In this document: piece after piece, positions 57,679-58,787 of the stretch
Numbering within the stretch: position 1 is the first letter of the stretch
Layout: each line of letters opens with the position of its first letter
Assembly (NCBI GenBank): GCA_919902675.1
Contig: CAKKRH010000001.1
Location: 64,003-128,002 of the forward strand
Direction of reading: 5' to 3'
Source: Omnitrophica bacterium GWA2_41_15
Lineage (GTDB): Bacteria; Omnitrophota; Gorgyraeia; Gygaellales; UBA12090
Length of the DNA: 64,000 nt
The notes under the pieces: model-generated
What the model saw: the letters and a program-made list of their open reading frames with translations, nothing else
The model's database searches: none
Told to the model about the DNA's origin: nothing
Translations under genes and position numbers: made by a program

Positions 57679-58787
57679 AAAATAAAGTGGTGGTGGCGAT
57701 GTCTGGGGGGGTGGATTCTGCGGTGGCCGCCGGCCTTTTGCAGAAGAAGGGCTATGAGGTAATCGGGATTACTATGTGCTTTGGCCTGAAGGAGTCAGGT
57801 AAAAAAAGGCCTTCCTGCTGCGGTATTGAGGGGATAGAAGACGCCCGCCGGGTGGCCCATAAGTTAGGGATTAAACATTATGTTCTGAATTTTGATAAAT
57901 ATCTTCAGAAAGAGGTGATTGATAATTTTATCAGCGAGTATCTTTCCGGAAGGACTCCTAACCCTTGCGTGCGCTGTAATGAATATCTGAAATTTGAGCG
58001 TCTTCTTGATAAGGCCAGAAGCTTAGGGGCACAATATCTGGCTACCGGACATTATGCGAGAATAGTCCACAGTCCACAGTCCACAGTCCACAGTAAAAAA
58101 TATTTACTTAAAAAGGGCAGGGATAAATATAAGGACCAGTCCTATTTTTTGTATCGGCTCAAGCAGGAGCAGTTGCGGCATATCCTTTTTCCTTTGGGGA
58201 GTTATACCAAGACCCAGGTTAGGGCAATGGCCGCGGAGCTTGACCTGCCGGTAAAGGACAAGCCGGGAAGCCAGGAAATTTGCTTTATTCCGGATGATGA
58301 TTACCGGGCTTTTTTAAGCCGGGCCTTAAGAAGCAAAGGGCTTAAGATAAGGCCGGGGCCGATTGTGGATTCTTCGGGGAAGGTTTTAGGCGAACACAAG
58401 GGTATCCCTTTTTATACTATAGGGCAGAGGGAAGGGTTGGGGATTGCCGCGGGTTATCCTATATATATTATTCGCATGGATTCTAAGGAGAATACTATTG
58501 TGGCAGGGAAAAAGGAGGAGGCTTTTTCTTCCGGTTTGATTGCCGGTGATTTGAGCTTTACTAATAAAGCGATGAAAAGAGAGATTGCCTTGAGGGTAAA
58601 GATAAGATATAATCATCGGGAAGTTCCGGCTAAGGTAAGTCCGGAAAGTAAAAACAAACTGAAGGTAGTTTTTTCTCAAGCCCAATTCGCGGTTACTCCG
58701 GGGCAGTCGGTTGTATTTTACCGGGGCAACACAGTGATTGGCGGAGGGATTATAGAGAGCGCCTTAAAAGATGCAAAAATTAGTTGA
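57675..58787 (+). CDS. mnmA: tRNA 2-thiouridine(34) synthase
   Basis: VVVAMSGGVDSAVAA, NPCVRCN, KDQSYFL. ATG 57675 overlaps the upstream stop (ATGA). Confidence 0.92.
   Translation: MKNKVVVAMSGGVDSAVAAGLLQKKGYEVIGITMCFGLKESGKKRPSCCGIEGIEDARRVAHKLGIKHYVLNFDKYLQKEVIDNFISEYLSGRTPNPCVRCNEYLKFERLLDKARSLGAQYLATGHYARIVHSPQSTVHSKKYLLKKGRDKYKDQSYFLYRLKQEQLRHILFPLGSYTKTQVRAMAAELDLPVKDKPGSQEICFIPDDDYRAFLSRALRSKGLKIRPGPIVDSSGKVLGEHKGIPFYTIGQREGLGIAAGYPIYIIRMDSKENTIVAGKKEEAFSSGLIAGDLSFTNKAMKREIALRVKIRYNHREVPAKVSPESKNKLKVVFSQAQFAVTPGQSVVFYRGNTVIGGGIIESALKDAKIS
58064..58094 (+). repeat. Perfect tandem heptamer (AGTCCAC)x4.4 inside mnmA
   Basis: agtccac agtccac agtccac agtccac agt; encodes VHSPQSTVHS directly after the conserved HYARI. 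Confidence 0.9.

Follow-up and report, generated by a model that had tools for sequence, protein, structure and literature searches.

Repeats whose unit is not a multiple of three generate frameshifts, and one would expect important genes to be purged of them. Here we ask why such a repeat, a perfect array of the heptanucleotide AGTCCAC, is found within mnmA, the gene for the tRNA 2-thiouridine(34) synthase, in a 64,000-nucleotide stretch of contig CAKKRH010000001.1 (below, the window) from an Omnitrophota bacterium of Hainich groundwater. An earlier note, made from the sequence alone, had placed the array in a variable loop of MnmA and had read it either as a phase-variable site or as a recent insertion of a heptamer element class present elsewhere in the window. 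In our analysis the array is probably something else, namely a mostly neutral, frame-locked heptanucleotide microsatellite in a tolerant surface hairpin, and one allele of a phylum-wide hotspot. It is long-lived and self-homogenising, and it is neither a fresh insertion nor a proven on/off switch; phase variation is mechanically possible and unproven.

It is clear from the sequence itself, and from Tandem Repeats Finder (TRF), that four perfect copies are present as the earlier note had it: the program reports the unit AGTCCAC at 58064-58094 with period 7, 4.4 copies, 100% matches and a score of 62. The array starts directly 3' of the AGA ATA codons (R129 I130) of the GHYARI motif and reads, in codon register, ATA followed by GTC CAC AGT CCA CAG TCC ACA GTC CAC AGT. 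It encodes residues V131-S140 (VHSPQSTVHS), and the translation of the open reading frame (ORF) 57675-58787 across it is ...GHYARIVHSPQSTVHSKKYLLKKGRDKYKDQSYF. Since the 7-nt unit lies within codons 130-140 and is not a multiple of three, a change of one or two units results in a frameshift. None of 200 simulated versions of the window (order-2 Markov) contained a perfect period-7 run of at least 28 nt, and the three observed period-7 runs of at least 18 nt compare with a simulated mean of 0.02 per window. With a tract beyond compositional expectation, the array is thus a long simple sequence repeat (SSR; 5-11 nt unit) in the sense of Mrazek 2007.

The array is not an assembly artefact, because the exact 370-residue protein is present on four contigs (one of them possibly the source contig of the window) and because a long-read assembly made independently from the same organism (L169), with 99.5% identity and homopolymer indels as the only differences, also has 4.4 copies. 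Copy number is equally constant for the other alleles described below, with the octamer allele seen in three samples, the GCTCTCA allele in three samples, and one allele of the larE array on four contigs. No copy-number difference among near-identical assemblies was found in any set compared, for mnmA or for larE.

The identity of the host gene is not in doubt. Its product scores 432.8 bits against the NCBIfam equivalog NF001138 (cutoff 284), matches MnmA entries of the PDB down to 1e-80, and has an AlphaFold (AF2) model with a mean pLDDT (the confidence score of the model) of 89 and a TM (template modelling) score of 0.86-0.90 to 2DER, 2DET and 2HMA. In an alignment of 48 sequences the PP-loop SGGVDS (S10 G11 G12 V13 D14 S15) and the cysteines C98, C101 and C203 are invariant. 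These cysteines make up a Cys-x-x-Cys plus Cys pattern (NPCVRCN ... EICF), which we take to mark an MnmA of the Fe-S-cluster type, as opposed to the Asp-x-x-Cys type of E. coli; an additional CC pair is present at residues 48-49. The ATG of mnmA shares bases with the stop codon of an upstream DUF1667 gene (ATGA, 57675-57678), the downstream nadA gene starts at 58771 and has its first 17 nt in common with the 3' end of mnmA, and the order FAD oxidoreductases, DUF1667, mnmA, nadA and two band-7 genes is kept in relatives.

Within the AF2 model, residues 128-132 and 143-147 form the two strands of a beta-hairpin and residues 133-142 are coil. The mean pLDDT falls to 68 for residues 131-140, compared with 94-96 in the flanking blocks, and the MnmA of Bacillus subtilis aligns with a loop that is 5 residues shorter. 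Because of the coil assignment, the low pLDDT and the shorter B. subtilis loop, the array is predicted to encode a protruding, poorly constrained hairpin tip. The earlier placement in a variable loop therefore agrees both with the model and with the ortholog loop lengths, which do vary.

For the comparison of loops, 120 close MnmA homologs, Omnitrophota wherever named, were aligned, and the loop was measured as the segment between GHYARI and YLLKKxKDxxKDQSYF. The commonest loop is the short form plus 7 residues, that is 21 nt or three heptamers, in 59 of 121 Omnitrophota orthologs; 8 residues are added in 12 orthologs and 14 or 21 residues in a few (Table 1). The inserts have a period of 7 (or 8) residues, which is a 7-nt (or 8-nt) tandem repeat read through three frames. 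Intact loops of 11, 18, 25 and 32 residues equal array copy numbers of 1, 4, 7 and 10, and the frame arithmetic of the earlier note, in which the frame is lost with one or two units and kept with three, is thus seen at work in the orthologs.

Table 1 The mnmA array, its gene and loop, the same loop in orthologs, and other heptamer tracts of the window.
Feature	Position	Strand	Identity to window MnmA (aa)	Orthologs (n)	Basis or remark
Perfect heptanucleotide array (AGTCCAC)x4 + AGT	58064..58094	+			Sequence read, TRF
mnmA, tRNA 2-thiouridine(34) synthase, 370 aa (= MEK6563522.1, Candidatus Omnitrophota bacterium)	57675..58787	+			Profile, PDB, AF2 model
Codons 133-142 (SPQSTVHSKK), predicted coil tip of beta-hairpin	58071..58100	+			AF2 model
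MnmA loop, 11 aa				17	
MnmA loop, 12 aa				7	
MnmA loop, 18 aa				59	
MnmA loop, 19 aa				12	
MnmA loop, 25 aa				4	
MnmA loop, 26 aa				1	
MnmA loop, 32 aa				1	
ATA(GTCCACA)x4, perfect, identical to window array	L164		63%		Ortholog DNA
GTCCGCA GTCCGCA GTCCAGA GTCCACA	L163		78%		Ortholog DNA
(GCTCTCA)x4 + GC	L081-083		84-87%		Ortholog DNA
(GCTCTCA)x4 at mnmA site	L173				Ortholog DNA
(GTCACAAG)x4 + T	L162, L170-172		84-89%		Ortholog DNA
AGTCCAC unit in another codon register	L085		61%		Ortholog DNA
Short form, array absent	L084		67%		Ortholog DNA
(AATTTCC)x4.6 at same mnmA loop site, Candidatus Howlettbacteria (CPR) PFMH01000068	L021:1209-1240				DNA
larE ORF (NCBIfam TIGR00268)	39583-40515				
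Imperfect array AATCGCC AATCACC AATCCCC AATCACC AATCGCC in larE, encoding KIANHQSPITNRL	40389..40423	+			TRF, simulation comparison
(TCAGCCT)x2.7, then decayed AACYTCY-type heptamers, in ORF 1290-5639	2114..2132	+			Peptide YQPSAFS...
(TCAGCCT)x2.7, homologous place of paralogous ORF 44054-47620	44719..44737	+			
AACTTCC AACTTCT AACTTCC (3 units), further inside ORF 44054-47620	45038..45058	+			
Degenerate period-7 tract, TAGAAGT-like, 67% matches	50067..50107	.			Starts at stop codon of ORF 49320-50069

An array of about four units is present at this site in approximately 60% of the Omnitrophota orthologs and in one ortholog from the Candidate Phyla Radiation (CPR), and a relative with only 63% protein identity (L164) has the window array itself. 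This makes the array an old feature that recurs at the site, and a recent insertion as proposed in the earlier note is not supported. The note had also reckoned with other taxa carrying the same peptide without nucleotide periodicity; the outcome was the opposite, the same peptide occurring with the same nucleotide repeat. A peptide-to-heptamer fit of at least 8/10 was obtained for 40% of the MnmA loops and for 39% of the corresponding LarE loops (see below). Only 1.5% of windows drawn at random from these proteins fit this well, and most of those overlap the loop. A complete fit (10/10) is found for 16 MnmA and 19 LarE loops, with many distinct units. Heptamer units at the mnmA site include GTCCACA, GCTCTCA, GCCGTCA, GTCACCA, GTCCATC, GTCGTCA and GTCGCAA as well as GCTCCAA, AAGAGCC, AGGGTAC, GAGAACC, AAGACAC, CGGTCGC and CGAACTC, and the octamer units are GTCACAAG and GTTCTCAA. 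The resulting loop peptides are unrelated between alleles, and there are dozens of them across the phylum. In a rough neighbour-joining tree of MnmA, short and long loop forms are interleaved.

Beyond the Omnitrophota the picture is different. Relatives with approximately 50% identity, among the matches listed from a contig scan with the MnmA alignment, served as control loops, and of these about 75 loops from other phyla are without an array, the exception being Candidatus Howlettbacteria. Heptamer-like loops were found in only about 4-6 of 143 more distant cluster representatives. The Howlettbacteria array is preceded by ATAGTCCGCG, which resembles the GTCCGCA unit of Omnitrophota, and is followed by decayed-looking units; a relative (P0227) has VREFPISNFQF plus a longer insert. 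One close relative, from a noisy assembly (L165:1721-1800, protein P0032), has in the loop a small palindrome, GTAGGC..GGTTCGCGAACC..GCCTAC, and no tandem array, suggesting that the site accepts hairpin-type insertions too.

A second gene of the window, larE, carries an array of five heptamer units in which only unit position 5 varies (G/A/C/A/G). All LarE orthologs of the Omnitrophota have a 7-residue-periodic peptide at this position with other units, for example VTSHKSQVTSH, VASRKSQVAS, IANRKSQIAN, VTSYQLPVTSY, ITDYRLPITDY, VTGYRLQVTG and VMRHASCVMR, and the array-bearing segment has the same length as in non-periodic outgroup homologs. In a second genome the array reads GTCACAA GTCACAA ATCACAA GTCACAA GTCG, identical on four contigs. 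The units of different orthologs can be placed in series of single steps, GTCACAA / GTCGCAA / ATCGCAA / ATCGCCA / ATCACCA and GTTACCA / GTTACAG / ATTACCG / ATTACGG, with the change present in every copy. Because the substitutions occur in every unit of an array, the series indicate concerted evolution. The unit types VASRKSQ, VTSHKSQ and VVRRPSS occur in both mnmA and larE, in different genomes. Arrays within one genome have no unit in common at the window loci, and ectopic conversion between arrays of one genome was rejected since these loci all differ in unit.

Closely related mnmA genes show how the alleles move. Two loop alleles, RIVTRSQGHKVTSKIF from an octamer array and KIALSSQLSALSGKY from a heptamer array, coexist within single 90%-identity clusters, and proteins that are 99.4-99.7% identical outside the loop have wholly different arrays (99.4% for P0004 with the octamer and P0250 with the heptamer allele). 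A second lineage, with only 85% protein identity to the first, has the same pair of alleles (P0002 and P0245, which outside the loop are 98.3% identical), and P0261 is a hybrid of the two alleles. When an octamer gene (L170) is compared with a heptamer gene (L081), 41 of 1116 DNA columns differ: 31 are in the loop window, 10 lie upstream within approximately 240 nt of it, and the 685 nt downstream are free of differences. Genes of the two lineages with the same allele differ in 18.5% of columns overall, and still share an identical tract spanning the array of 101 nt (octamer allele) or 41 nt (heptamer allele). As the same two alleles occur in lineages this far apart, recombination exchanges short patches between them. 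An alignment of the window with L170, L081, L162 and L173 shows that the divergence of mnmA is a mosaic; the window and L170, for instance, are near-identical at alignment columns 250-350 and elsewhere have 9-16 differences per 50 nt. This mosaic indicates frequent homologous recombination among co-occurring Omnitrophota lineages. Allele diversity among close relatives thus appears to be largely a matter of short-patch exchange between co-occurring lineages, with a slower turnover of units in situ on top. In L173 the same C>T change is present in two adjacent units, which would show copying from unit to unit, and an in-frame length polymorphism of 8 residues separates P0267 from P0008 within one 90% cluster.

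Taken as a frame-locked microsatellite, the array can be described as follows. Slipped-strand or transient-misalignment events between neighbouring units would copy unit onto unit faster than point mutations build up, and this concerted evolution would keep the array pure. Selection would be limited to the reading frame, the absence of stop codons and a rough loop length, leaving the peptide free to change and the copy number at 1, 4, 7 or 10. Since loop sequences are unrelated between alleles, the peptide itself appears to be without selection. Gain or loss of one or two units would produce a frameshifted, non-functional mnmA that is normally purged, and because such changes give dead alleles the array would be a small mutational load and not a programmed switch, while recombination spreads the array alleles between lineages on short patches. 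A favoured unit of 7 nt is in line with the excess of heptamers seen in bacteria at large: the control genomes contain 52 period-7 arrays, compared with 16 of period 8 and 6 of period 5. With the mnmA arrays excluded, array density is 37 per Mb in these genomes compared with 42 per Mb in control genomes, and the idea of a genome peppered with heptamer arrays was rejected on these numbers. The unusual point is the persistence at fixed coding sites, not the array density.

Several points weigh against this reading. Neutrality leaves unexplained the presence of frameshift-prone repeats in two particular housekeeping genes across a whole phylum, in genomes that at the density given above are not otherwise array-rich. 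The identical GTCCACA array at 63% protein identity and the alleles found in more than one lineage could reflect selection on the arrays, either at the nucleic-acid level or of a balancing or diversifying kind. The interleaved short and long forms need repeated loss or re-expansion, and re-expansion from one unit by slippage only is hard; the tree in which they are interleaved is, as said, rough. Finally, the homogenising mechanism is inferred and not observed.

An alternative that we consider unlikely is a true contingency locus, in which the array is kept pure since reversible gain and loss of units usefully switches mnmA (and larE) off and on. The array is indeed a non-triplet repeat in an ORF, any change of one or two units abolishes the protein, and purity is retained over deep divergence in two genes. 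A benefit could be bet-hedging against phages whose programmed frameshifting is correct only with s2U34-modified tRNA; deletion of mnmA in E. coli gives strong resistance to phage lambda via altered frameshifting (PMC3296357). A search for truncated products with the N-terminal 130 residues of MnmA as query returned for the most part fragments from contig ends, chimeras with adapters and homopolymer errors of long reads, and one natural allele of the expected kind. In this 71%-identical relative (L168, JGI Ga0566189_0086187) mnmA is split into two otherwise intact ORFs, the loop DNA being ATT GAAAAA GTTCAGG GTTCAGG GTTGTCGG TTA; without one GTTCAGG the frame is restored and a normal short-form loop, IEKVQGCRLKKAKD, results. 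Because a 7-nt tandem duplication is atypical as a sequencing error, this is probably a real frameshift allele from the gain of exactly one unit, and it would show that the predicted out-of-frame states of mnmA do occur. Against more than 100 intact orthologs this one convincing allele is far from the pattern of a classical contingency locus, and phase variation as suggested in the earlier note was not borne out. Of the features expected of such a locus, the array has the non-triplet unit in an ORF and lacks copy-number variation, which is absent among all sets of near-identical assemblies (four plus one and three plus three for mnmA, four for larE). Furthermore, MnmA is a core translation factor and neither a surface nor a restriction protein, and four units are short beside classical phase-variable tracts, so that slow slippage is to be expected. 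The other frameshifted ORFs are long-read homopolymer errors or come from chimeric contigs. Thus a frameshift at the array of L086 was rejected as an OFF allele, that contig being full of Ns and resembling a consensus of the GCTCTCA and GTCACAAG alleles; the short or fragmented ORFs P0124, P0139 and P0242 (L165, L166, L169) all belong to a single noisy long-read assembly in which many genes have homopolymer indels; and L167 (coverage 1), with a GTCGCCA-type array followed by non-mnmA sequence, is probably chimeric.

In a wider and quite unlikely form of the idea, Omnitrophota and at least one CPR lineage would keep frame-locked 7-nt arrays at fixed positions in core sulfur-transfer enzymes (MnmA, LarE) as evolvability devices, toggling the enzyme off or swapping hairpin cassettes, with alleles held by balancing selection and traded among species, for instance as an escape from phages that target MnmA or rely on tRNA with s2U34.

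That diversifying or balancing selection acts on the hairpin, with the loop as the target of a hostile agent such as a phage inhibitor or toxin, the repeat rewriting the loop and lineages trading alleles, seems to us very doubtful. Such selection would account for wholly different loop alleles in otherwise near-identical proteins, for the two alleles common to lineages only 85% identical and the recombinant between them, for the dozens of unrelated loop peptides, and for the in-frame difference between P0267 and P0008. A heptamer repeat is a poor generator of diversity, however, as each unit gives one cyclic 7-residue peptide, and the same pattern is found in larE, where the segment concerned is not obviously an exposed loop. 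Mosaic recombination is also found elsewhere in mnmA (the window and L170 at columns 250-350), and allele sharing therefore needs no selection. We know of no antagonist of the loop.

We hold it improbable that the tandem units act as an element in DNA or mRNA, with the arrangement mattering more than the exact sequence, for example as an array for a single-strand-binding or cold-shock-type protein, as a translational pause or as a recombination hotspot. Approximately four tandem heptamers do recur as proposed regulatory elements in other bacteria (PMC2700814, PMC4692102, PMC4679880), the array and its flank are identical across divergent lineages, and one recombination patch ends at the array. 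On the other hand, units differ between close relatives and among the arrays of one genome, and no sequence-specific binder fits this; RNA structure prediction around the mnmA array gave no supported structure (z = -0.9), and an Rfam scan of the whole window gave zero matches. The reading frame (1 + 3 units) fully accounts for the preference for four units, and the known heptamer families are mostly intergenic. Lys, Glu or Gln codons, which are read by MnmA-dependent tRNAs, occur in 14 of 16 MnmA units, compared with 41.5% of stop-free heptamers, and in 5 of 8 larE units. We make no claim of autoregulation from this, as the larE units share these codons, the units are A/C-rich and they are phylogenetically non-independent.

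That a mobile heptamer element was inserted recently, or that the array was created in assembly, is hardly credible even though the window holds other heptamer arrays, since short-read and long-read assemblies are identical, most orthologs are occupied at the same site, the 14-mer AGTCCACAGTCCAC (the AGTCCAC dimer) has no further occurrence in the 64-kb window with up to 2 mismatches allowed, and the array consists of pure direct repeats without inverted repeats or a target-site duplication in the window sequence.

The earlier note was right in assigning the array to a class of heptamer arrays with members elsewhere in the window. These lie in larE (40389-40423) and at 2114, 44719 and 45038; their units differ from that of mnmA, and a second AGTCCAC array is absent. 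The last three tracts lie in the ORFs 1290-5639 (1449 residues) and 44054-47620 (1188 residues), large paralogs matched by no NCBIfam family, and the TCAGCCT and AACYTCY tracts of both are found in a Ser/Gln/Pro-rich linker. Another copy of the paralog repeat region, 82% identical, lies just outside the window (L169:18611-19693). The reverse complement of the degenerate tract at 50067-50107 resembles AACTTCY units; the tract is intergenic with a G-rich + strand and is the sole array of the window with opposite strand composition. Overlapping short repeats of periods 7, 8 and 15 (TTGTCTATTG-like) are present between ORFs 1290-5639 and 5930-6289 at 5736-5772. A period-14 tract of GGGATAGGCCCAGC (x2.9, 66% matches) is present in a FAD-oxidoreductase gene at L081:2235-2275 and L170:660-700, which in relatives is the gene two places upstream of mnmA; TRF does not report this tract in the window.

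It remains to place the arrays among known repeats. Classical SSR contingency loci include the tetranucleotide tracts in genes of Haemophilus influenzae and the 7-bp repeats in hmw promoters. The mnmA array is like them in being a non-triplet repeat in an ORF, in that a unit change would turn translation off, and in its retained purity; it is unlike them in the lack of copy-number polymorphism in near-identical genomes, in having four units, and in its location in a housekeeping tRNA-modification gene. As cited in PMC4679880 and PMC4692102, heptanucleotides are the most abundant class of prokaryotic long SSRs with 5-11 nt units (Mrazek et al. 2007), and non-triplet units are depleted in coding regions. 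Our arrays resemble these in being perfect 7-nt tracts beyond chance with a slippage-type origin, and the control genomes, too, have more arrays of period 7 than of periods 5, 8 and 10. Persistence at orthologous sites is not described in those surveys, whereas the mnmA and larE arrays are in conserved enzymes, locked to 1 + 3n units, phylum-wide and changing in unit.

Geobacter metallireducens has 49 loci of GGACCGG x4 elements, some of them intragenic (PMC2700814). Four tandem heptamers, at times inside genes, are thus common to both systems, but in Geobacter one G+C-rich consensus unit is used at many loci, while in mnmA and larE each locus and lineage has its own unit at a conserved site. 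The GGGNATC repeats of Xanthomonas and Nostoc show a four-unit preference (PMC4692102), and heptamer repeats are also known as TAACTGA in Beggiatoaceae (PMC4679880) and as STRR in cyanobacteria (PMC4692102, PMC4679880). These families are likewise tandem heptamer arrays, but of a single unit, mainly intergenic and in part G-quadruplex-capable, in contrast to the sense-strand C/A-rich, unit-variable arrays in the ORFs of mnmA and larE. The window array does not behave as a member of a dispersed single-unit family, as there is no other AGTCCAC dimer in 64 kb and the mnmA, larE and large-ORF arrays are ORF-internal. Nor does it look like a mobile element or a miniature inverted-repeat transposable element, with no terminal inverted repeats, no target duplication and a single occurrence in the window. 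There is also a likeness to the concerted evolution of minisatellites and rDNA, where copies within an array are more similar than orthologous copies and substitutions reach all units. The difference is that here the array is 28-35 nt, in an enzyme-coding gene and fixed in length by the frame, so that homogenisation is either length-neutral or goes through three-unit steps. In a literature search we found neither heptamer repeats in Omnitrophica nor a description of unit-changing, in-frame heptamer arrays at orthologous sites, in Omnitrophota or elsewhere.

What emerges is that a core enzyme of tRNA modification has kept a non-triplet array, in frame and at one codon position, across an uncultured phylum, and that larE has kept a second one, with a unit sequence that changes in concert and whole alleles shuffled between species. 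This makes for a compact natural system of 28-35 nt in which to address the speed of bacterial concerted evolution, the way in which microsatellite length is quantised by the reading frame (1, 4, 7 or 10 units) and the reason why a period of 7 nt is favoured. For practical use, mnmA offers a sensitive marker of strains in Omnitrophota populations. If the minority reading should be true, these ultra-small groundwater bacteria would have a phase-variable or cassette-swapping tRNA-modification gene, tying translation fidelity to bet-hedging at the population level.

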